64,000 nucleotides of DNA. It comes from a virus. The stretch spans positions 1,566 to 65,565 of IMG/VR virus record IMGVR_UViG_2888103098_000001, one strand, 5' to 3'. Shown here in pieces: positions 8,001-63,446 of the stretch. The notes under the pieces are model-generated. The model did no database searches and was not told the DNA's origin. It saw only the letters and a list, made by a program, of their open reading frames with translations. A program made the translations under genes and the position numbers. The number at the start of each line of letters is the position of its first letter. The first letter of the stretch is position 1.

Positions 8001-8429
8001 ATGTCCACGCCCTTCCACACCACCGTTCACGTCCACACCATCAAGAACGAGATGTTCAACCGGACCATGGCGTTCGCCAATCCGGGTGCTCTCTCGAAGG
8101 CCGACCTCGAAGGTCGTCTGGTGGAGCCGGATCCGGCCGTGCCGTGCGGCATGAAGCTGGTCGAGGCCGGCACCCCGATCGGCCCGCGCGTCGCCCGCAT
8201 CGACGTGTTCGAGAACCGCGGCCCCGGCGCGGGTGGCGTGATCACCGCCCAGTTCCGGTTCTCCGAGCTGGTCCCGATCCTCGACGGCGACGCCCTCGCG
8301 CAGGGTGACACCGCGGTGGGCGGTGGCAACGGCTTCGTGAAGAAGGGTGCCGCGGGTGACGCCGGTGCGTTCGTCGCCGAGGTCCTGACGATCAAGGGCG
8401 TGAAGTACGCCTCCGTCGTCAAGCTCTAA
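8001..8429 (+). CDS. Capsid decoration/cement protein (putative)
   Basis: 142 aa gene between scaffold and major capsid; GGAG RBS. Confidence 0.65.
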   Translation: MSTPFHTTVHVHTIKNEMFNRTMAFANPGALSKADLEGRLVEPDPAVPCGMKLVEAGTPIGPRVARIDVFENRGPGAGGVITAQFRFSELVPILDGDALAQGDTAVGGGNGFVKKGAAGDAGAFVAEVLTIKGVKYASVVKL

Positions 8430-8468
8430 GCTGACCTGGTCAGCGCCTGAACTACGCCCATAGCCGGC

Positions 8469-8483
8469 GGTACACTTCGTACC
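8469..8483. promoter_or_regulatory. Class A operator copy (13/15) inside a longer inverted repeat, 8463-8489
   Basis: GCCGGC-GGTACACTTCGTACC-GCCGGC. Confidence 0.7.
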
Positions 8484-8522
8484 GCCGGCCGGGGCGACAC
8501 GAATACCAGGTTCATCTTCAAC

Positions 8523-8537
8523 GGTACGTCTCGTACC
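8523..8537. promoter_or_regulatory. Class A operator copy (14/15) upstream of major capsid gene
   Basis: GGTACGTCTCGTACC. Confidence 0.75.
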
Positions 8538-8565
8538 ACCAACAGACCCCCGAGGAGTACGGGAC

Positions 8566-9780
8566 ATGGAACTGAAGCCGCTCACCACCCTGACCGCCAA
8601 CCGCAAGTCGCCCGAGGGGCTGCTCGCCGCGCTGGCCGTGCGGGACAACAAGCGTGCCAGCGGCGACGCCGGCCTGCAGCTCGTCAACGAGGCCCGTTCG
8701 TACGGCCTGGAGATGCGCGACTACCTGCGTCTGGCCATCGACCCGGCCGCCGCCGAGAAGCCCGAGCTGTACGAGGGCCTGAACGGCTACGAGAGCGCGC
8801 TGAAGTTCCTCAACCTGCCGGTCGGCAACGACTACGACAGCGGTGTGGTGCTCGACCTCGCCTCCGACACCTTCGAGTACAGCCCGGGCACCCGCGCGCT
8901 GTTCCCCGAGGTCGTGGACGACGTGGTCCGCTTCGCCTCGCGCCAGGTCGACTACGAGAACCTGGAGAGCCTGATCACGTCCACCCGGACGATCAACGGC
9001 GTCGAGATGATCTCGACCGTCGTGAACGACGAGAACGCCGACGACTTCAAGGTCTTCGGTCCGGTCTCCGAGTTCGGCCGGTTCCGCATCGGCTCCATCA
9101 AGACCAGCGAGACGCGGGTCAAGATGTGGAAGATCGGTGGCGGCTACCGCACCTCCTACGAGTTCCAGCGCCGCTCGCGCCTGGATCTGCTCACCCCGTA
9201 TGCCAACCGCATGCAGCGTGAGCTGAACCTCTCGAAGGTCGGTCTCGCCACGGGCTTGCTGATCAACGGCGACACGGTCAACGCCCCGGCCCACGTCGTG
9301 CGCCAGGACAGCTTCGACGATGCCAAGACGGTCGGCGTGTCCGAGATCGGCAAGATCTCGTACAAGCACCTCCTGAAGTGGTTCGTCGCCCGCGCCAAGG
9401 CCGGCGTGCCGATCGACACCGTCGTCGGCAACTGGGACGCCTACCTCGACTGGCTGTTCCTGTTCGCCCTCCCGGTGTCCGGCGCGGCCACCCGCACCGA
9501 CGCCGAGAACCTCGCGGCGACCGGCTTCCGCGTCGGCGGCGTGCCGATCCTGAACGGCCAGATCAACTTCGTGCTCTCGACCACGATGCCGGCCGGTCAG
9601 CTCCTGGGCTTCCGCAAGGGCGAGACCATGGAGCAGCTGATCGAGGCGGGGTCGCTGATCTCGGAGAGCGAGCGCGCGATCCAGACGCAGTCGATCACGT
9701 ACGTGAAGTCGGAAGTCTCCGGCTTCCGCCTGGTCTTCGGGGACACCCGTGAGATCTACGACTACGGCACCGCCAAGTAG
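8566..9780 (+). CDS. Major capsid protein
   Basis: 404 aa; very strong GC3 bias; GAGGAG RBS; position after scaffold and decoration genes. Confidence 0.82.
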   Translation: MELKPLTTLTANRKSPEGLLAALAVRDNKRASGDAGLQLVNEARSYGLEMRDYLRLAIDPAAAEKPELYEGLNGYESALKFLNLPVGNDYDSGVVLDLASDTFEYSPGTRALFPEVVDDVVRFASRQVDYENLESLITSTRTINGVEMISTVVNDENADDFKVFGPVSEFGRFRIGSIKTSETRVKMWKIGGGYRTSYEFQRRSRLDLLTPYANRMQRELNLSKVGLATGLLINGDTVNAPAHVVRQDSFDDAKTVGVSEIGKISYKHLLKWFVARAKAGVPIDTVVGNWDAYLDWLFLFALPVSGAATRTDAENLAATGFRVGGVPILNGQINFVLSTTMPAGQLLGFRKGETMEQLIEAGSLISESERAIQTQSITYVKSEVSGFRLVFGDTREIYDYGTAK

Positions 9781-9802
9781 TCCCTCCCGGGACTGAACCA
9801 CC

Positions 9803-9826
9803 GGCCCCCGGATCTTTCCGGGGGCC
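9803..9826 (+). terminator. GC hairpin after major capsid gene (no U-tract)
   Basis: GGCCCCCGGA-TCTT-TCCGGGGGCC. Confidence 0.45.
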
Positions 9827-9848
9827 CCTGCCGTAGGAGGCCACCACC

Positions 9849-10199
9849 ATGAAGATCCTGGTCGAGACGACCGGCGACTTCCAGCTCGTTCACACCGAGC
9901 TGAACGAGCACGTCCGCAGTCGCGGCAAGTCGGTCATCGAGAAGTCCCAGTGGGCGCAGGAGAAGGTCTCGATCGGCCAGCTCCTCGTGACGTTGCAGCT
10001 CAGCGATGAGGCGACCGATGCTGAATGGCTCGACACGCTCCGTGACAGCGACGGCGACGAGGCCCTGGCCCTGGCCAGCTTCGAGGACCGCTACCCGGTC
10101 GATGCCGACAGCGCCCGCCGGCCGGAGCCGGACCCGCTGCCGCCGACCACCGCCCAGGTGCCGCACAACCGCCGGGGCGCGCCGCATAAGCCGAAGTAG
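9849..10199 (+). CDS. Hypothetical virion-morphogenesis protein
   Basis: AGGAGG RBS; position in the head-neck block. Confidence 0.7.
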   Translation: MKILVETTGDFQLVHTELNEHVRSRGKSVIEKSQWAQEKVSIGQLLVTLQLSDEATDAEWLDTLRDSDGDEALALASFEDRYPVDADSARRPEPDPLPPTTAQVPHNRRGAPHKPK

Positions 10200-10967: not shown

Positions 10968-11528
10968 ATGCCGATGCTGCTGTCCCGGATCCAGGCTCAG
11001 AACGAGGTCTGGCTCAACAAGCTGCCGCCGTCCGCCACCCGGTTCCGCGGCGTCATCTTCCCAGTCAACCCGACCGCGCTGCCGACCAGCGTGTTCATCC
11101 TGCCGCGCCTCGGGCTGCGCACGCGCCCGCGCGAGCCGGTCCACGCCAAGGATCTGTTCCGCGACCCGGCCGGCCGGGTCATGCTCGTGGGGAACTGGGA
11201 GCTGCCGCTCGCCCTCGACGACGTTGTCTCCCGCTGCTTCGTGCTGTTCCAGATGACCGGCAAGGTCAGCTGGCGGCGGCGCAGCCAGGCCGTGAAGCAC
11301 CCGGTCACCGGCCTGCCGCAGTCCGAGGGACCGTTCGAGGAGGTCGGCCCGATCTGGGTCTCCATCGAGAGCTACACCCACGGGAACGAGGACCCAGGTG
11401 CGCGGATCACCACCGACCGCCTGCGGTGCATCACCAACGCCCCGCTGCAGTACGGCGACATGGTCAACGGCAAGACCGTGAAGCGCCTCAATCCGACGCT
11501 TGGGGTCACCATCGCCGAGATCGAGTGA
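10968..11528 (+). CDS. Head closure/neck protein (putative)
   Basis: Synteny; TGATG coupling to the next gene. Confidence 0.5.
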   Translation: MPMLLSRIQAQNEVWLNKLPPSATRFRGVIFPVNPTALPTSVFILPRLGLRTRPREPVHAKDLFRDPAGRVMLVGNWELPLALDDVVSRCFVLFQMTGKVSWRRRSQAVKHPVTGLPQSEGPFEEVGPIWVSIESYTHGNEDPGARITTDRLRCITNAPLQYGDMVNGKTVKRLNPTLGVTIAEIE

Positions 11529-12364
11529 TGGCGGCCGACCTGCAGCTCCTGTTCCGCATCGGCGGGACGAAGTCGTCCGATCCGAACGCGACCACCGAGC
11601 GTGCGGTCGCGGTGCTGCGCGAGCGTGCAGAGGCGAAGGGCATCGAGCGCGTCATGGAAGCGGTGATCGCCGACGAGAAGGCGATCGTGGCCGCGGTCAC
11701 GGCCGATGCCGCGAAGTTCGCCGGCCAGGCCGCCCGGGTGTTCACCCGCCTGAAATCCCCCAGCTCGGGCTCCGTCACGATCTCCCTCGACGACATCAGC
11801 CGGAACGCCGGGGTGCTGTCGGGCGACAGTATGTCGAAGCGGCTGCAGGGCAAGACCACCACCGAGTGGTTGGCGCTCACGAAGCAGACCGTGGCGGCCA
11901 AGCGCCGGCGCAAGGCCGGCGAGCCGGCCACGTTCTTCGTGGACACCGGAGCGCTGCGCACCCTGCTGACCGAATACCTCGGGCCGGCCACCGCCGCCCT
12001 GGTCGATCCCCGCATCGTCGTGCGGAAGGGCCCCCGGCGCGTCTCCGTCACACTGAGCCTGATGGCCCAGGCGTCCGGCCGGGAGAAGGCCGGTGTGACT
12101 GGCGCCAGCTTCCCGGGGGCGAGCGGCGGCGGCGTCGCGCGCGAGGAGAGCCTGTTCGTCCGCTACCTGAAGAAGGCCGGCGCGCCGGACCGCGATCCGA
12201 AGCACCCGCTGGCCTACAAGCTGGAGAACCCCCGCGGCTCGCACCGGCCCTTCCTGCAGAACACGCTGGTCTACTGGATCAGCCGCCGGCTGCCGCTTGT
12301 TCTCGACAAGTCGCTGCGCTCTGCGCTGGCCAAGACGAAGAAGAAGGGGAAGACCCGTGTATAA
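11528..12364 (+). CDS. Neck/tail completion protein (putative)
   Basis: Start MAADL at the TGATG overlap; basic protein; synteny. Confidence 0.5.
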   Translation: MAADLQLLFRIGGTKSSDPNATTERAVAVLRERAEAKGIERVMEAVIADEKAIVAAVTADAAKFAGQAARVFTRLKSPSSGSVTISLDDISRNAGVLSGDSMSKRLQGKTTTEWLALTKQTVAAKRRRKAGEPATFFVDTGALRTLLTEYLGPATAALVDPRIVVRKGPRRVSVTLSLMAQASGREKAGVTGASFPGASGGGVAREESLFVRYLKKAGAPDRDPKHPLAYKLENPRGSHRPFLQNTLVYWISRRLPLVLDKSLRSALAKTKKKGKTRV

Positions 12365-21816: not shown

Positions 21817-23343
21817 ATGGATAGTAGCAAGAGCAGTGAAGGGGTGCTAACCTTCCCAAAAAATGGGAGAAGCGCCTTGGACGTTCGGAAATCCGACATC
21901 GACAGTTTAGAAGAGCGAGTAAAAAAGCTATCTTATGAAAAATATCTCCCGACCATTCGAATGTCGAATGTAAGGAGCTTCGACAATCAAACTATCAATT
22001 TTGATTTTCCAATAACGGCAATTATTGGAACGAACGGCGGTGGAAAATCTACTGTTCTTGGCGCCGCAGCAATAGCTTATCACTCTGTAAAGCCCGGATC
22101 GTTCTTTCCAAAATCCAATATTGGCGACAACAGTATGGCAAACTGGCGGATTGACTATGATATAGTCGACCGTAAAGAGCATAAAGCAGGCATTTTTACT
22201 AGAAACGCTCGCTTCGTCGCAGCCAAATGGCGAAGAGATGGCATACCTGATCGTCAGGTCATCGTCATTCCAATCCAACGGACTGTCCCAGCGAACGAGC
22301 AGCCAAGGTTCAAACAATTTATTGGCTTAGCCCAGCGCACCGATGTGAAAGTGAACGCAATCAAACCAAGCGTTCTACAGCATGTCGGCCGTATCCTTGG
22401 AAAAGACGCCTCCGGTTATGAGAGAATATCATTAAAGAGCGATCCCAGTAGATCTATCTTTGTCGGCGTCAAGCGCCTGAACGATTATTCTCAATTTCAT
22501 TTTGGCGCAGGGGAAGCTTCAATTATTGACATGGTTACGAAGCTTGAGGAAGCTTCAGACAACGCCTTGATACTTATAGAAGAAATCGAAAACGGCCTTC
22601 ATCCTCTGGCAACGCGTAAGATGGTGGAGTATTTATTTGACGTTGCGAAGAGGAAAAAGGCCCAGATTATCTTCACGACACACTCGGAGTACGCGCTTGA
22701 CGTCTTGCCACCCAAAGCAATTTGGGGGTGTATTGATGGCGTAGCGTATCAGGGCAAACTGACGATCGAGAGCCTACGCGCTTTGACTGGAACAGTAACC
22801 AAAGACCGGGCCATATTCGTAGAAGACGATTTTGCGAAGGATCTGTGCACTGAAATTCTTAGGCAATACTCACCGGACTTATTGGACCAGGTAGAAATTC
22901 ATAAGGCCGGTGGTTTTCCGTACGTTGTCGAAGTGCTTAAATTTCACAATGCCAATCCCACAATAAGCACTAAGGCCGTTGCCGTGATCGATGGAGACAA
23001 TCCCGCTTTGGCAGAGCCCAACGACTACGTTCTAGAGTTGCCGCCGGGCGCACCAGAGGCAATTGTGTTTGGCTATATTCTTGATAACGCGGATCAGGTA
23101 GCAGCATTGGTGCAACAGCGCTGTCAATGTCCATCCATAGCGCAAGACAAAATTGTCAAAGCCCTTCAATCAGTATCTCTAGACACGACCGATCATCATC
23201 TGTATTTCGCGAAACTTGGAGAAAAACTTGGATTTATATCTGAGATTATCGTCCGGCGCGGCCTGTGCTCGATCTACGTTCAGAACTCAAAGGTCGAATT
23301 GGAACCGCTGGTAACGAACTTGTCTGAGAAACTGAAGTCATAA
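21817..23343 (+). CDS. ABC/AAA_21-type ATPase fused to TOPRIM-like domain (OLD/PARIS-like); candidate defence moron
   Basis: Walker A GTNGGGKS, signature-like HFGAGE, Walker B ILIEEIENGLHP, H-loop IFTTHS, then FVEDD...AGG...VIDGD TOPRIM motifs; markedly AT-rich compared with flanks. Confidence 0.8.
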   Translation: MDSSKSSEGVLTFPKNGRSALDVRKSDIDSLEERVKKLSYEKYLPTIRMSNVRSFDNQTINFDFPITAIIGTNGGGKSTVLGAAAIAYHSVKPGSFFPKSNIGDNSMANWRIDYDIVDRKEHKAGIFTRNARFVAAKWRRDGIPDRQVIVIPIQRTVPANEQPRFKQFIGLAQRTDVKVNAIKPSVLQHVGRILGKDASGYERISLKSDPSRSIFVGVKRLNDYSQFHFGAGEASIIDMVTKLEEASDNALILIEEIENGLHPLATRKMVEYLFDVAKRKKAQIIFTTHSEYALDVLPPKAIWGCIDGVAYQGKLTIESLRALTGTVTKDRAIFVEDDFAKDLCTEILRQYSPDLLDQVEIHKAGGFPYVVEVLKFHNANPTISTKAVAVIDGDNPALAEPNDYVLELPPGAPEAIVFGYILDNADQVAALVQQRCQCPSIAQDKIVKALQSVSLDTTDHHLYFAKLGEKLGFISEIIVRRGLCSIYVQNSKVELEPLVTNLSEKLKS

Positions 23344-43870: not shown

Positions 43871-44203
43871 GTGAGCAGCGCAGTGAACTCGGAAATTGTA
43901 AGCAATCAGACAGACAGACTGGAATTCCAGTTAGCCAGACTTTCAAAGATCCTTGATGTTCCCATAAGTCGGTTTCATTCACCTCTTCTAAAGAATTTGT
44001 ATCCGCAAGAAAAAACAACAGAAGCAGAAAACTTGTTGGCGCTGATTGAAGCATATCTCAATATTAATGATGCATCTGCACGAATGTTAACAATAAATAT
44101 GGTTCGATCCCTCGGCCGTATTCCTAGACAAGAGAAGAAAATGGTCAATGAATGCGATCATATCGATGAGCTAAACTCGCAATCCATCGACCACATCGCT
44201 TAG
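43871..44203 (+). CDS. AT-rich moron; resembles the C-terminal part of alphaproteobacterial XRE regulators
   Basis: LARLSKILDVPISRF...LLALIEAYLNINDASARMLTINMVRSL; antisense to flanking genes; low GC. Confidence 0.55.
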   Translation: MSSAVNSEIVSNQTDRLEFQLARLSKILDVPISRFHSPLLKNLYPQEKTTEAENLLALIEAYLNINDASARMLTINMVRSLGRIPRQEKKMVNECDHIDELNSQSIDHIA

Positions 44204-56198: not shown

Positions 56199-56558
56199 AT
56201 GGACTTGAATATAGTCAGCATACATAATCATGGTGATGCAGATAACGAATATGTACTCTTGAAGGCCAGCGCTGATATAGACTTAAAGCATTGGGCGCTA
56301 TGCGATACTACTTACGTGTCAGACACAACAATCTCCAATACTCTGCGCCATTTTTACTGGTTCATATCCACCGAGGTAAGATCCGGAGAGTATGTTGTAC
56401 TATTCACTAAGAAAGGTAAATACATAAAGGATAAAGATGTAAATAATAACGTGATGCACAAATTTTATTGGAATTCAAACCAAGCAATTTGGAATAATAG
56501 TGGTGATGCAGCTGTGCTGTTTAATATGCGAACTTGGGCAGTCAAAAGGGCGAGATGA
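56199..56558 (+). CDS. AT-rich moron, lamin-tail-domain-like Ig fold (putative)
   Basis: NEYVLL...GEYVVLFTKKG...IWNNSGDAAVL resembles the LTD pattern; antisense to flanks; low GC. Confidence 0.55.
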   Translation: MDLNIVSIHNHGDADNEYVLLKASADIDLKHWALCDTTYVSDTTISNTLRHFYWFISTEVRSGEYVVLFTKKGKYIKDKDVNNNVMHKFYWNSNQAIWNNSGDAAVLFNMRTWAVKRAR

Positions 56559-57872: not shown

Positions 57873-58327
57873 GCGGCTAGGTCCCTGTCGCGTGCTGCAG
57901 TGAGCAGCTCCTCCACGTTTATCTGGAGCAAGTCTGCGATCTTCTGGATCTCTGTTACTGTGAAATCGTGGTAACCCTGCTCCATGAGTGAGAGCTTGGC
58001 CCGGTTGGCGAAGGCGTGCTGCTTGCAGAACTCTTCGCTCTTCATCTCTGAGTTCAGCCGCGCCTCGGCGAGCTTGCGGCCGATGCGGACCTGGACCGGG
58101 CCGAGGATGGTCCGCTCCTGGTACTTCCGGTGGTAGTCGTGGCGCTGTCGTGGTCGTTGGGCGCGGCTGGCGTCGCGTTGCTTGCGCTCAGCCTCGGTCA
58201 GCGAGGCTGTGATGCGGGCCACATAGGTCCGCAGCGTGCTCTGCGTGTAGTTCGGCAATTCGTGGAAGATGTCATTGAGGCAATGACCCTTGAGGATCAT
58301 CGCCTTGACGTTTTGTTTCGCGCTCAT
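57869..58327 (-). CDS. XRE-family HTH transcription regulator
   Basis: IGRKLAEARL...LSLMEQG...TVTEIQKIADLLQINVEELL; possible second N-terminal HTH. Confidence 0.75.
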   Translation of the reverse strand: MSAKQNVKAMILKGHCLNDIFHELPNYTQSTLRTYVARITASLTEAERKQRDASRAQRPRQRHDYHRKYQERTILGPVQVRIGRKLAEARLNSEMKSEEFCKQHAFANRAKLSLMEQGYHDFTVTEIQKIADLLQINVEELLTAARDRDLAA

Positions 58328-58983
58328 GCTTCAGCGAGCCTCCGGTCGATCATGCGCTTGCGCGTGCCGTGGGCCGGGAAGCCGACGATGACCCCACGGG
58401 GCCGGGCGCGAGAGCACAGGTTGCAGGTCGAGCAGGTGACCTGCTCGGCGTAGGTGGCCGGGCAGACCGCGATCTCGCGGCCGGCCGGGGTGCGGTGGCG
58501 GCCACGGCCGGCGTCGGACGGCAGGACCGTCACGACGCTCATGTCCGGGGCCTCATCGAGCAGGGCGTCCGCATGGGCCGCGCTGTCGGTGGAGCAGTTG
58601 ATGTGGAAGCCGAGCTTCCGAGCTTCTCGGTACGTTTCGTACTGACGGCCGTGGGTAAAGACAATCGCCTCGCGACCGCCATTGGCGCGGGCCAGGGCAA
58701 GCACGTCGTCGTGCGCCGGCGGCAGGTCGCCAGCGGTGCCGTAGCGCCAGCGGATCCGCTTCGGCAGCGCGCGGATCAAGTGGCACAGCTGCTCCAGCGT
58801 GACCTGGTTGACGGCGGTGCCGGCGGTTAAGGAGCGCCAGAAGATCGAGCCCGGACCGTGCTCGGCGTAGCAGCCGGCACCGCGCAGGCCGCAGGAGGTG
58901 GGGCAGGTCGCGGCAGAGGCCATGACGGAAGGCATTGGTCCGAGCTTGCGGTTCTGGGATGCACGGCGGAAGTGGAAGAACAT
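58324..58983 (-). CDS. Cysteine-rich phage protein (gp88-like / radical-SAM-related, putative)
   Basis: CPTSC...GCYA cluster, GDL motif, C-terminal CPA...CSTCNLC. Confidence 0.5.
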   Translation of the reverse strand: MFFHFRRASQNRKLGPMPSVMASAATCPTSCGLRGAGCYAEHGPGSIFWRSLTAGTAVNQVTLEQLCHLIRALPKRIRWRYGTAGDLPPAHDDVLALARANGGREAIVFTHGRQYETYREARKLGFHINCSTDSAAHADALLDEAPDMSVVTVLPSDAGRGRHRTPAGREIAVCPATYAEQVTCSTCNLCSRARPRGVIVGFPAHGTRKRMIDRRLAEA

Positions 58984-59116
58984 GGTGATCCTCGCGAGCT
59001 GGCGGTACGTTTCGGACCGCGGGATTTGGAGGTGTGTCGGCCGCTGGGCTAACGGCGCTTGCTTGGCCTACCTATTTTTTCTAGTCTCTTGTATTAGCTA
59101 CAATTGAGGGGTCGAA

Positions 59117-60100
59117 GTGGATACAAATATACCGAACCCCGACGAACTTGAACAAACGGCACTCCGCATATACTTTGTCGCATTCCACCAAGTACTAAAT
59201 ATTATTGATGACCTATTGAATAAACATCAATTGCTTCGGGCTAAATTGGACGGACGATCAATAGTTGCCATTTCGGATGCCGAAAATTCCCGAACAACCG
59301 AAGATAACAGCGATGATATCGCAGAATACATTCGCTTGGCTCAGCCTGATTTGCAATTAAGCTACACTCTGATTCAGCAAAGTCAAGAACTTGGCCTAAA
59401 GTCTATTATCTGCAGAGAAAGCCCTTTTCTTCTTTTACTTGGTTCCGATGTTCGCAGCTGGGGGCACGACAAAGATTTTGCTGATCTGAGAACAATTGAT
59501 GCGGGCGATTTAATAAAAGTCGTGAATGCCATAAAACCAAACAAACTTGATGAAAAATTTTCGAATACGTTCAACGCTCTGCGACGAGGCCGGAACAAAA
59601 TCAGCCACCTGGGGCAATTCCGGGACCAGATTGATCCAATTTATCTGCTCGATATTTTGATCGATCAATATAGATCTCTCTATACCGATCGAACCTGGAT
59701 CCAAGATTTATTATTGTTTGAAAGCTCCCATCGCCATACCATTTTTACCTCCGCCCACCTATCTGACCAGAATAGTGCTCTATCCACATACGCATCAGTC
59801 GAGGATGCAACCACTCTTGCACAGCAAAAATTCTTACTAGGGGCAAGCAAAAATTGCAAACTCTACCGCTGCCCCAAGTGTCATTCCGGTGATTATATGG
59901 GGTTAGAAATGGGTATTGGAAGGACCCTTGCAGTCGAACGGCGCTCAACCAAAGCAAGTTGTCTGATATGCCTCGAAGAATTCTCTATCAAATATAGGCA
60001 ATGCATTTTCTGCCGTGAGCGCGTTGCTTTTATTGATAGAGGCGGCGACGAAGACATGTGTGGTTATTGTGGCGAGAAGTGGCGTGACCATCAGCCTTAA
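59117..60100 (+). CDS. AT-rich moron: HEPN-motif protein with C-terminal zinc ribbons (candidate Abi/RNase)
   Basis: QELGLK helix plus RNKISH (RX4H), then four CxxC pairs (CPKC, CLIC, CIFC, CGYC); antisense to flanks; low GC. Confidence 0.65.
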   Translation: MDTNIPNPDELEQTALRIYFVAFHQVLNIIDDLLNKHQLLRAKLDGRSIVAISDAENSRTTEDNSDDIAEYIRLAQPDLQLSYTLIQQSQELGLKSIICRESPFLLLLGSDVRSWGHDKDFADLRTIDAGDLIKVVNAIKPNKLDEKFSNTFNALRRGRNKISHLGQFRDQIDPIYLLDILIDQYRSLYTDRTWIQDLLLFESSHRHTIFTSAHLSDQNSALSTYASVEDATTLAQQKFLLGASKNCKLYRCPKCHSGDYMGLEMGIGRTLAVERRSTKASCLICLEEFSIKYRQCIFCRERVAFIDRGGDEDMCGYCGEKWRDHQP

Positions 60101-60108
60101 CCTACTTT

Positions 60109-60131
60109 CCCCGCCCGGACACCGGGCGGGG
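60109..60131. terminator. Hairpin between the convergent HEPN-like and rIIB genes
   Basis: CCCCGCCCGG-ACA-CCGGGCGGGG. Confidence 0.5.
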
Positions 60132-60142
60132 TGCTGCGCCGG

Positions 60143-61237
60143 TCAGACCTCGTCGGCGAAGACGATGCGCTTGACGTAGCTGTTGAGGACGCCCTGCTCG
60201 CCGTCGTGCTCGGTCTGCAGGATCAGGCGGTAGTTGCAGCCCTCATCGACCCGGACAACCGGGTAGATGCCGGCCGGCGGCCAGCCGCCCTCGACGGTCT
60301 CGACCAGGTCGCCGACCTGGGCCAGGAGCGCCGGCTGCTCGACCAAAGCCTCCTCCCGCTCGTCTTCCTCCTCGGGTAGGTCGTCCGGCTCCTGCTCGTC
60401 CTCGACACCCTGGTCTTGATCGACCTCGTCGAGCGCGGCGTCGTTCGGCGCCGGGAGCTGCGAGCGGGGCGTGAGGACCGGGCGGCCGAGGATGGTGGCC
60501 GCGTAGTCCTCGTCCAGCTCGTCGATCACCTCGTAGGCGCAGATCCGCATCTTGGTGCCCTGGTAGGAGAAGGGCACGGAGACCACGTCGTGCGGCCACA
60601 CGGCGATCAGCATGACCCGGTGCGCGTCCGAGCCGTAGTGGCTCTTCACGTAGTCCGGGGTGCCGACGTGCAGGCCGGTCGAGCAGCAGGCGTTCGGGTT
60701 GGCGTCGACCTTGTCCCGGTCCATGGCCGGCTTGTCGCCGATCATGTTTCGGAAGGTGCGGCCGGTGTGGCAGTCCATGTAGTCCTGGTTGACTGCCTTG
60801 TAGGCGACGAAGCGGCCGTCCTCCAGGAAGCCGAGCTGGCTCTTGTCGAGAAACACCGGCAGGCGCTCGATGGCGGCCTGGGTCGGGTTCTGCATGAGCG
60901 AGCCGAGCGCGTTCCAGAGCGGCGCGAAGGGCTCGCCGGCACGCTGGAACTCCAGAATGCGATCGACCCAGAGGCCGGTGAGCACCTGGCCCTTGAACAC
61001 GATGTCCTGGCCGATGAACGTGATGGCGCCGTAGCTGTCGCGCAGCAGCGCCTTGCGAACGTCGACCAGCGCCATGAGGTGCTCGGCGTCGTGGTCGCCC
61101 GGGGCCTGCAGCAGCTTGCGGGCCTCGTCGAAGCGCTCGTGCTCGCGGGTCAGCGAGTAGGGCTTGCCCTTCACGAAGAAGGTCAGCGACTGGTTGCAGA
61201 TGGTGAAGGGAAGACGAGCAAGCGAGGTCATAGCCAT
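60143..61237 (-). CDS. rIIB: rIIB-like protein
   Basis: LMQNPT...LPVFL...EDGRFVAYKAV...DCHTG...VDANPNACCSTGLHVG; directly downstream of rIIA. Confidence 0.85.
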   Translation of the reverse strand: MAMTSLARLPFTICNQSLTFFVKGKPYSLTREHERFDEARKLLQAPGDHDAEHLMALVDVRKALLRDSYGAITFIGQDIVFKGQVLTGLWVDRILEFQRAGEPFAPLWNALGSLMQNPTQAAIERLPVFLDKSQLGFLEDGRFVAYKAVNQDYMDCHTGRTFRNMIGDKPAMDRDKVDANPNACCSTGLHVGTPDYVKSHYGSDAHRVMLIAVWPHDVVSVPFSYQGTKMRICAYEVIDELDEDYAATILGRPVLTPRSQLPAPNDAALDEVDQDQGVEDEQEPDDLPEEEDEREEALVEQPALLAQVGDLVETVEGGWPPAGIYPVVRVDEGCNYRLILQTEHDGEQGVLNSYVKRIVFADEV

Positions 61238-61313
61238 ATCCTGTATGGTTGGTGGTACGAAATGGACAATGGAAGGCGGGCGCACCTGTCCCGTGGGACA
61301 GGTGCATTTGAGA

Positions 61314-63446
61314 CTACTTGGCGATCAAACCGAAGTAGTGATCGATGGCCTTTTGACCTTCCTTTGTGAAGGTATAGCCGCCGTAACCGTGCCGGGCGTA
61401 CTGCTGCCACTCGTTGTTGTTGAGGATCAGCGGCAGCATCGGATGGGTCTTCACGACGGCGTACCAGGCGTTCCGAACCGGCAGGGTCGGATCCTTGGCG
61501 ACCGTCTTGAGATCGGTGCCGGTCAGTTCGAGGAGCACGGCCGCCAGGCGGTCGTGATCGTTGTCGTCGCGGACCAGGGTCTCACGAGCCTTCGACAGCG
61601 CGATCATCTCGTAGAAGGCGTCGCGCAGCTGCTGCGGAGCCATGCCGAGATCGACCTTGCGGTCGCGGATCTGGCGCAGCAGCTGCGGGAAGCTGCTGTC
61701 GTTCCAGGGGATCGTCGGGGCGACCTGGGTCGGGTCGATCGCCTCGTCGAGCAACTCGACCAGGTGGTCTCCAAGGGAGATCCAATGGTCCAGCGGAGCC
61801 TCGTCCTCGCCCAGCACGACGCAGGTCATGCCGCTGCCGATCTTGTCTTCGAGGCCGTTCTTGCGCATCCGCCGCAGGATGCTCAGCAGCGGGTCGTTGT
61901 AGCGGTCGTTGAACTCACGGGTCTCACCCTCGAAGGACAGGGTGTAGGTGAGCTTCTTCCCGCGGCCGGCGATCCGCACGTAGAGCAGCTCGTCGTCGTG
62001 ATCGACCAGCTCCTGCCAGGTGGCGCAGGACGCCAGGTCCATGACCTTGCGGCGCTTGACGCTCTCGGGCCGCTTCTCCCGCTTGCCACGCTCCTGCTTC
62101 GGCAGCTTGATGTCGTCGAGCAGGACGTAGTCCGGGTTGCCCATCCGCTGCAGGGCGTAGGGCAGCTCGGGACGCTTGCACCGGACCCACAGCAGCTTCT
62201 GGTCGATGAGGCCAGCCAGCTCCAGGCGCTCCAGGGAGCGGCTGGTGTTGTGCTGAATGACGATCGTGCGATCCTGCAGCTCGGCCGGGTTGATGGTCCA
62301 GTCCGCCTTGAACGGCACCGGGGCGCCCGGGAAGGTGTTCCGGCCGCGCATCTCCGGCCATTTGGCCGCCTTCACGCAGCCGCTCGGGAACAGCTCGTCC
62401 TCGAAGCTGAAGCCGCGCCAGCCCAGCTCGCGGGCGACGTACCACTGGTTGCCGGGCAGCGTGCTGGCGATGTCGGTCGCCTTCCAGCGCGCCTGGAAGT
62501 AGGTATCGCAGGCGTCGATCTGAGCCTTGGCCGACCGGGTCCAGTCGACCTTGTAGGCGTCGAACAGCGCCTGCAGCCCGGACTGGGTGCGGTCGTCGTA
62601 CTGCAGGTTCTCACGCGAGGCGGACACCGAGATGGTGCCGATCTTGGCCTCGAACACGATGCAGGTCCCGGCGTCGATCATGTTCGTCGAGGGCATGTTG
62701 TAGGGGTCGATCGGGTACATGACCGGGCCGAGCATGACCTGCGGGCCGTCGAACGGCACGCTCTCCTTGCGGTAGACGGTCCAGCCATCGCCCTTGCTCA
62801 GCACCCGCGGAGTGCCGAAGTCGACGGCCGGGGTGATGACCGGCCGGGGGTGGAACGACCACAGCACGGCCTTGGCGTGCTCGTGGAAGCGGTTGATGTC
62901 GCTCTCGCGGACCGGGAAGGAGATCTCCAGGCCGGTGCCGCGATCCTCGGCATCGAGCACCCACTCACCCAGGAACGAGATCTGGATTTTGCCGGCTTCG
63001 GACACGCCGATCGAGTAGACCCGGCGGAACCCGCGGAAGCGGGAGATGACGGTGAAGGAGCCGGCGCCGTCCGAGCGCATGAGGTAGGCGAGCGCGGCCT
63101 TCGAGCCGAAGCCCCAGCCGCCCACGGCGTCATCGTCGCCGTCCTTCGTGCTCTCGCCGATCTTGGCGTACTTGTTCATCATGAACGAGTGCGGCAGGCC
63201 CGGCCCGAAGTCGCGGATCGTATACTGCGGGTTGAAGCGGGTCGGCAGCTCGATCTCGAACGGCTTCTTGGGGGGCGACACCTCCCAGGCGTTCGTGGCG
63301 TATTCCCGGACCGGGTAGACGATCTTGTCGGACACCATGCCGGTGAGCAGGGCGTAGACGATCTTCGCGTCGCCGCCGACGCCGGTCTGTTTGACCTGTT
63401 GCGCGCCTTCGCCAACGGTCTCGTTGAGAGCATGAACCATACGCAT
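61314..63446 (-). CDS. rIIA: rIIA-like protein (N-terminal GHKL/HSP90-type ATPase)
   Basis: PVREYATNAWE, IRDFGPGL, ESTK...GGWGFGSK GHKL motifs. Confidence 0.88.
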   Translation of the reverse strand: MRMVHALNETVGEGAQQVKQTGVGGDAKIVYALLTGMVSDKIVYPVREYATNAWEVSPPKKPFEIELPTRFNPQYTIRDFGPGLPHSFMMNKYAKIGESTKDGDDDAVGGWGFGSKAALAYLMRSDGAGSFTVISRFRGFRRVYSIGVSEAGKIQISFLGEWVLDAEDRGTGLEISFPVRESDINRFHEHAKAVLWSFHPRPVITPAVDFGTPRVLSKGDGWTVYRKESVPFDGPQVMLGPVMYPIDPYNMPSTNMIDAGTCIVFEAKIGTISVSASRENLQYDDRTQSGLQALFDAYKVDWTRSAKAQIDACDTYFQARWKATDIASTLPGNQWYVARELGWRGFSFEDELFPSGCVKAAKWPEMRGRNTFPGAPVPFKADWTINPAELQDRTIVIQHNTSRSLERLELAGLIDQKLLWVRCKRPELPYALQRMGNPDYVLLDDIKLPKQERGKREKRPESVKRRKVMDLASCATWQELVDHDDELLYVRIAGRGKKLTYTLSFEGETREFNDRYNDPLLSILRRMRKNGLEDKIGSGMTCVVLGEDEAPLDHWISLGDHLVELLDEAIDPTQVAPTIPWNDSSFPQLLRQIRDRKVDLGMAPQQLRDAFYEMIALSKARETLVRDDNDHDRLAAVLLELTGTDLKTVAKDPTLPVRNAWYAVVKTHPMLPLILNNNEWQQYARHGYGGYTFTKEGQKAIDHYFGLIAK

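Follow-up and report, generated by a model that had tools for sequence, protein, structure and literature searches.

Four hallmarks mark out catalytic HEPN domains: helix 3 ends in an Rx4-6H motif, the arginine of this motif is followed by a polar residue, helix 2 bears Ex3[KR], and an insert separates helices 2 and 3 (PMC3710099). The fusion of such a domain to zinc ribbons in a single protein has been known as a design since 2013 and was put to the test in 2024. The earlier description is that of the EC042_2821 family, which has a conserved Rx4-6H motif, overlaps DUF3644, includes zinc-ribbon fusions and occurs in R-M operons (Anantharaman et al. 2013, PMC3710099). The tested example is HEC-08 (Hma-embedded candidate 08; PADLOC PDLC04162), a single-gene HEPN and zinc-ribbon defence that protects E. 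coli from phages and loses this capacity when the histidine of the Rx4-6H motif is mutated (H128A); its HEPN domain was matched by its authors to the toxin SO_3166 (5yep) (Payne et al. 2024, bioRxiv 10.1101/2024.01.29.577857). Another set of monogenic HEPN proteins, named Ishtar, acts against plasmids and clears plasmid RP4. Ishtar proteins combine an N-terminal HEPN domain (DUF4145 or DUF3644) with a C-terminal domain of five to seven strands and three helices, of unknown function, and are often encoded near defence genes (bioRxiv 10.64898/2026.07.06.735840).

We found a gene of comparable design in the window, by which we mean the whole 64,000-nucleotide stretch of DNA analysed. The window is a prophage or phage-like element within a 6.2-Mb chromosome. 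It encodes a large terminase, a portal, a major head protein, a 2080-aa tape measure and a tail fibre J, together with DNA polymerase, ligase and ribonucleotide reductase, and the carrier is a large siphovirus-like prophage. The gene starts with GTG and runs on the plus strand over 327 codons. From 54.7 to 63.4 kb, every other gene except a low-GC ORF at 56199-56558 lies on the minus strand, and the neighbours 3' of it, rIIB and then rIIA (61314-63446), are convergent with it. A preliminary description, made from the letters alone, had presented it as an AT-rich 327-aa gene antisense to its neighbours and adjacent to rIIB, and this is what we observe: its GC content is 0.44 and its GC3 0.42, against 0.66-0.70 and 0.87-0.93 in the flanking genes. 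It is likely, in our opinion, that the gene is horizontally acquired prophage cargo encoding a free-standing immune effector of the HEC-08 kind. The protein would probably guard the lysogen when other phages superinfect it or other mobile elements enter. The gene and its surroundings are laid out as follows.

58324..58983, minus strand: DUF7227 gene, left border of the cargo slot, 5' of the gene under study (Pfam PF23872, E 4.6e-61; 79-94% identical in three related phages).
59057..59116, plus strand: AT-rich leader 5' of the GTG, part of the cassette; GAGGGG at 59107-59112 resembles a Shine-Dalgarno sequence (read from the sequence).
59117..60100, plus strand: the whole low-GC gene, encoding the predicted HEPN and double zinc-ribbon protein of 327 aa (ORF list, GC and GC3, 28 close clusters, 730 profile-search clusters).
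60109..60131, no strand assigned: perfect 10-bp GC stem with a 3-nt loop, between the stop codons of the gene and of the convergent rIIB (inverted repeat I11; fold energy -25.2 kcal/mol, z -2.2).
60143..61285, minus strand: rIIB, right border of the cargo slot (PHROG 609, E 1.4e-56; 69-77% identical in three IMG/VR phages).

The cassette begins about 60 bp 5' of the GTG codon, at the switch to AT-rich sequence, and ends before the 10-bp GC hairpin, which is possibly a two-way terminator, though one without a U tract. A consensus scan of the plus strand upstream of the gene found no sigma-70 promoter, and around the gene we saw no convincing flanking direct repeats or target-site duplication. 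The ORF list of the window contains no co-oriented small ORF adjoining the gene.

All the motifs first read from the sequence (QELGLK, RNKISH, CPKC, CLIC, CIFC and CGYC) are present in the translation. QQSQELGLK is encoded at 59375-59401, RRGRNKISH at 59582-59608, and the four CxxC pairs are all inside 59870-60070. They fall within the following parts of the protein.

59138..59680, plus strand: predicted HEPN domain, about residues 8-188 (AF2 model and VIA-align).
59387..59401, plus strand: E91-x3-K95 (ELGLK), second HEPN active-site motif, in helix 2 (invariant in 66 members).
59591..59608, plus strand: R159-N160-K-I-S-H164, putative Rx4H catalytic motif, at the end of helix 3 (conservation in 66 members, HEC-08 alignment).
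59696..59839, plus strand: helical linker, residues 194-241, three helices joining the HEPN domain to the zinc module (secondary structure of the model).
59870..60070, plus strand: Cys-rich module with C252/255, C282/285, C296/299 and C315/318 on five beta-strands (conservation, HEC-08 alignment, domain model).

In the AF2 model built on the family alignment (pLDDT 86, pTM 0.87), helix 1 (residues 8-36) is followed by a variable beta-hairpin insert (37-75), helix 2 (76-101), a further insert (102-145), helix 3 (146-165) and helix 4 (174-188). We compared this model exhaustively with 48,161 PDB representatives using VIA-align, and the top 11 matches were all HEPN (Z 8.5-10.5, rmsd about 3 A, 113-134 residues aligned), with the tool's warning that a Z below about 13 can also occur between unrelated helical bundles. 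SO_3166, a Shewanella toxin, came first (5yep_B; Z 10.5 over 129 residues, rmsd 3.1 A, covering model residues 8-191). Against the PDB, Foldseek gave only weak matches for the full model, among them a Csm6 HEPN at E 0.15, and nothing at E <= 1e-3 in either the PDB or BFVD. The fold match alone is supportive, not decisive. It becomes convincing in combination with the four hallmarks, all of which are found here (R159-H164, N160, E91-K95 and the insert at residues 102-145), so that the HEPN fold anticipated in the preliminary description is also the one that the predicted structure indicates.

The Cys-rich module probably forms two Cys4 sites that would bind two zinc ions. Modelled alone, the C-terminal part (residues 208-327; pLDDT 81) shows two helices and then five strands bearing the four CxxC pairs. 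We found no fold match for this domain in the PDB (Foldseek E >= 0.5, best VIA Z 2.7), the weak Foldseek rows including YfgJ and CHY-type zinc proteins. A profile search of PDB sequences returned chance Cys-rich matches only, and the ESM Atlas unnamed clusters only.

By a word-indexed search we identified 28 clusters with identities of 30-47%, which come from Methylorubrum, Azospirillum, Bradyrhizobium and metagenomes. The family grew considerably in a profile search of 1.84 billion representatives, with 730 clusters at E <= 1e-3, 578 at E <= 1e-10 and 322 at E <= 1e-30, almost all of them full length (300-330 aa). Pfam and PHROGs gave nothing meaningful for the protein, and no family in either collection recognises it or 22 of its homologs. 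In these 22 close homologs, R156, R159, N160, I162, H164 and all eight cysteines are invariant. In a set of 66 members reaching down to 21% identity, E91, K95, R156, N160, H164 and six of the eight cysteines are still invariant, while R159, C252 and C296 are at least 90% conserved; all eight cysteines are again invariant in 13 genome homologs, including one from a Desulfobacterium MAG. The RNKISH motif is thus conserved in close and diverse members alike. Conservation in both the 22 and the 66 homologs shows that the motifs are not due to chance: the family is real and its motifs are under selection.

How does this family relate to HEC-08? The gene had first been presented as belonging to no recognised named system, a statement that has to be qualified: HEC-08, with the same design, already bears a name, but the present family is related to it only remotely. 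The PADLOC HEC-08 model matches the protein at E 3.5e-6 (24 bits), over residues 137-321 and profile positions 95-270 of 358 only, and it matches 17 of the 66 family members at E <= 0.01 (best 7.9e-12). We retrieved two genuine HEC-08 genes and, for a comparison of profiles, used a HEC-08 alignment (A2) of 16 sequences. One of the two retrieved genes has a large gene upstream and a putative DNA methylase gene on its other side, a setting that looks like the described Hma-embedded position, the identities of both flanking genes being putative. With hhalign, the present family (66 sequences, A4) and A2 aligned at 96.3% probability (E 1.8e-9, 237 columns); a smaller 22-sequence profile of the family gave 89%. 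The superposition places E91/K95 on the invariant E41/K45 of HEC-08, R159/N160/H164 on R108/N109/H113, and the four CxxC pairs on the first four of the eight invariant pairs of HEC-08. The family is thus remotely homologous to HEC-08 across both domains.

On the other hand, an HMM built from A2 (as distinct from the PADLOC model) scores the present family at a median of 9 bits, with 2 of 172 sequences significant, and the reciprocal search of HEC-08 with the HMM of our family gives a median of 10 bits and 1 significant sequence of 120. Within-family scores are 300-640 bits, versus about 10 bits across the two families, and conserved CxxC pairs number exactly four here versus eight in HEC-08. 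Judged by their HMMs, the two are clearly separate sister families. Pfam DUF3644 (PF12358) matched none of 22 members at E <= 1, while PADLOC's own DUF3644 model gave E 0.032 for the prophage protein and matched 15 of 66 members (best 5e-5).

The resemblance to HEC-08 is one of overall plan. In both cases a single gene encodes an N-terminal DUF3644-type HEPN domain with RNxxxH and Ex3K motifs, followed by CxxC zinc-ribbon units without a known fold; both are located in defence islands, and both HEPN domains match SO_3166 (5yep) best. The prophage protein differs by the additional variable beta-hairpin insert between HEPN helices 1 and 2, and its gene is prophage-borne, not Hma-embedded.

The zinc part of the HEC-08 match is not specific. 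The PADLOC HEC-08 model also weakly matches (E about 1e-4) an unrelated 329-aa protein with four CxxC pairs (G000:C1:1068453-1068767; L048 546-1535, minus strand), which we take to resemble FdhE. In many genomes, open frames about 300-330 aa long receive similar matches confined to the zinc region, and the profile finds matches in two control genomes as well (E. coli and Lactococcus lactis).

A relative is found on pKpQIL-D2 and similar conjugative plasmids of Klebsiella or E. coli (L049 6052-6954). This 300-aa hypothetical protein, next to a DUF2971 gene and an integrase, has a related HEPN head (29% identity) that retains Ex3K and RNxxxH, and only two CxxC pairs. The number of zinc units thus varies (eight, four or two pairs) around a conserved HEPN head, and these relatives constitute a natural series in which the role of the zinc module could be probed.

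The comparison with EC042_2821 is by description only: three homologs of the prophage gene stand beside type I R-M systems, as in that family, whereas its described wHTH and REase fusions are absent from the prophage protein. The MNT-HEPN toxins (SO_3166, PDB 5yep) and HEPN-T proteins provide the best structural matches to the HEPN domain and have the Rx4H chemistry in common with it. However, these toxins measure about 130 aa, come with an MNT antitoxin, have no zinc module and share 7-12% identity with the domain, and neither MNT nor any other conserved partner is present beside members of our family.

To characterise the genomic context of the family, we scanned one genome per species, which gave 14 loci, mostly from Alphaproteobacteria, and identified neighbours by HMM. 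The three closest homologs are likewise in low-GC patches. The loci with informative neighbours are these.

L022: homolog flanked by a type III-A retron and, on its other side, by a type II CBASS (E1-E2, cyclase, phospholipase).
L023: complete type I R-M system (HsdR/S/M) adjoining the homolog.
L027: class II pAgo with a DpnII-like nuclease near the homolog.
L029 (Hyphomicrobium MAG): IetA/IetS beside the homolog.
L030: homolog directly 3' of HsdR.
L031: HsdS/M 4 kb from the homolog.
L033 (contig labelled Leptospira interrogans): same IetAS arrangement as in L029; 59% GC, IetA/IetS 97-98% identical to those of L029.
L034: truncated homolog copy beside an efflux pump.

L033 is probably a contaminant contig in a Leptospira assembly and not independent of L029. 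An Agrobacterium conjugative plasmid carries a homolog flanked by repABC and an integrase, and QatC/QatD are encoded 4 kb from it. A PADLOC tally pooled over seven further neighbourhoods, hence not attributable to single loci, contains matches to IetA, a GajB-like helicase and DRT-type systems. The family is associated with defence islands, which is what a neighbourhood analysis had been expected to reveal if the gene served in defence. An all-against-all comparison of the three neighbours on either side in 13 loci detected no conserved partner or antitoxin gene. The proposal of a stand-alone effector is borne out in this respect, since the lack of any gene common to these neighbourhoods suggests that the protein works alone or with host factors.

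We observed that the low-GC island carrying one homolog, near uvrB in a Beijerinckiaceae MAG (L024 11094-12716, minus strand), has three more small low-GC genes (93, 210 and 231 aa).

Are phages the adversary? Relatives of the gene are carried by 19 plasmids, mostly conjugative, and the three helices and five strands that follow the HEPN domain in our model resemble the strands and helices of the Ishtar C-terminal domain. Ishtar proteins are also encoded by single genes and have a mixed beta/alpha domain C-terminal to the HEPN domain, but this likeness is drawn from a verbal description only, and the Ishtar paper mentions neither cysteines nor zinc (bioRxiv 10.64898/2026.07.06.735840). The same enzyme could then act mainly on plasmids or other non-phage mobile elements rather than on phages. 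We consider this unlikely, as HEC-08, the sole tested relative, is anti-phage and the systems neighbouring the homologs are anti-phage too. The two roles are, in any case, compatible with one another.

The gene qualifies as a moron, as it had initially been labelled. Searches for the family in IMG/VR (pattern scan) and in 50,697 GenBank phage records (tblastn) found none, which indicates that carriage by a phage is unusual. A megablast of 12 kb of the window against phages gave no match. We also looked for an empty site, but 200 genomes of the order contained no matching DNA and 400 genomes of the class no matching rIIB. Three contigs from IMG/VR (L045, L046 and L047; 71-86 kb), however, have a rIIB 69-77% identical to that of the window and the gene order rIIA-rIIB-[gap]-DUF7227-HTH-p368-SNF2 in common, with the gene under study absent from all three. 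Given its foreign GC3 and its absence from three syntenic relatives, it is a horizontally acquired moron.

What these relatives hold in the gap differs from one to the next. In L047 there is one high-GC small gene only. L045 has in addition an antisense low-GC ORF of 144 aa (8022-8456, minus strand) that is hydrophobic and membrane-protein-like, and L046 an additional 1.8 kb or so (8376-10140, plus strand) with genes of 285, 100 and 159 aa, the first of which is low in GC. Two small genes are conserved in L045 and L046, and one of them in L047 too; the window lacks both, and the moron occupies the interval. These differences in content identify the rIIB-DUF7227 junction as a variable cargo slot. 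The slot genes of L045 and L046 have no Pfam or PADLOC match and are candidates for unknown accessory genes. Besides, rIIB itself differs in length: 380 aa in the window versus 505-590 aa in the three relatives (L045 6031-7548, L046 5992-7716, L047 5971-7743), which have an extra central and C-terminal segment.

This arrangement bears on a further explanation, in which the RNase would serve the phage's own cycle, through shut-off of host RNA, rIIA/rIIB-linked timing of lysis or stabilisation of the prophage as an addiction toxin. The position directly beside rIIB in a prophage speaks for such a role, as does the occurrence of HEPN toxins in toxin-antitoxin modules (PMC3710099). But the gene is antisense to the entire replication and early block and has a foreign GC content, the three syntenic relatives do without it and hold other cargo in the same place, the family is found in chromosomal and plasmid defence islands and not in phage records, and an antitoxin-like conserved partner is absent; we therefore regard an own-cycle role as very improbable.

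Cys4 ribbons often bind nucleic acids, which could be taken to favour a catalytically silent protein, nucleic-acid-binding or regulatory. Such a protein, for which the MtlR and NT-associated HEPN families, which are not nucleases, would be precedents, is the least credible of these alternatives and hardly to be expected, as non-catalytic HEPN domains typically lose Rx4-6H (PMC3710099), whereas 66 members at 21-45% identity all retain E91, K95, N160 and H164.

Returning to the immune effector that we favour, its action would most likely comprise three steps. The lysogen would transcribe the gene independently of the antisense lytic genes. The protein would stay inactive until an incoming phage or other mobile element brings a trigger or an RNA substrate, to be recognised by the zinc module. 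The HEPN site would then cut RNA, and translation and replication of the invader would halt, resulting in superinfection exclusion or abortive infection. We infer that the protein cuts RNA, binds zinc and confers defence, that the lysogen expresses it and that its zinc module acts as a sensor. RNA cleavage at the E/K and R-N-H site, with the zinc module gating the activity or choosing the substrate, is suggested by the chemistry of the family (PMC3710099) and by the HEC-08 mutant.

What is new here is a sister family to HEC-08 that has half its zinc module, is missed by current models and was found in an unusual carrier. It adds a sizeable unannotated group to the HEC-08-type one-gene HEPN defences and uncovers a gap in annotation, with Pfam missing the family and PADLOC finding about one quarter of its members. 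The general picture of prophage-borne defence is unchanged. A bolder view, which we offer tentatively and would lean slightly against, is that the family (at least 578 clusters at E <= 1e-10, no Pfam model) represents unrecognised, widespread single-protein HEPN effectors that are functionally distinct from HEC-08, with a minimal two-zinc module having its own trigger or RNA target, and that the rIIB-DUF7227 junction is a cargo hotspot in which the low-GC genes of L045 and L046 that lack an annotation represent new defence or counter-defence genes.

Other low-GC genes are scattered over the window. In the replication module, a fourth gene of low GC (0.41) is an antisense ORF of 110 aa (43871-44203, plus strand), for which Pfam, PHROG and PADLOC give no match. 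The low-GC (0.39) antisense ORF of 119 aa at 56199-56558 (plus strand) contains a Lamin Tail Domain (PF00932, E 4.6e-9) and sits between the SNF2-like helicase and the p368 gene; tblastn did not detect it in L046 or L047, and L045 has a 46% identical copy in the same position and orientation (11222-11557). A 508-aa low-GC (0.46) gene at 21817-23343 (plus strand) is inserted among the tail genes, 3' of the tape measure and of two small ORFs, and PADLOC HEC-04 (ATPase-TOPRIM) matches it over nearly the full length (E 1.3e-201). With this match, the prophage carries at least two single-gene defence morons, and one temperate phage thus combines HEC-04 and the HEPN gene with a variable slot beside rIIB.
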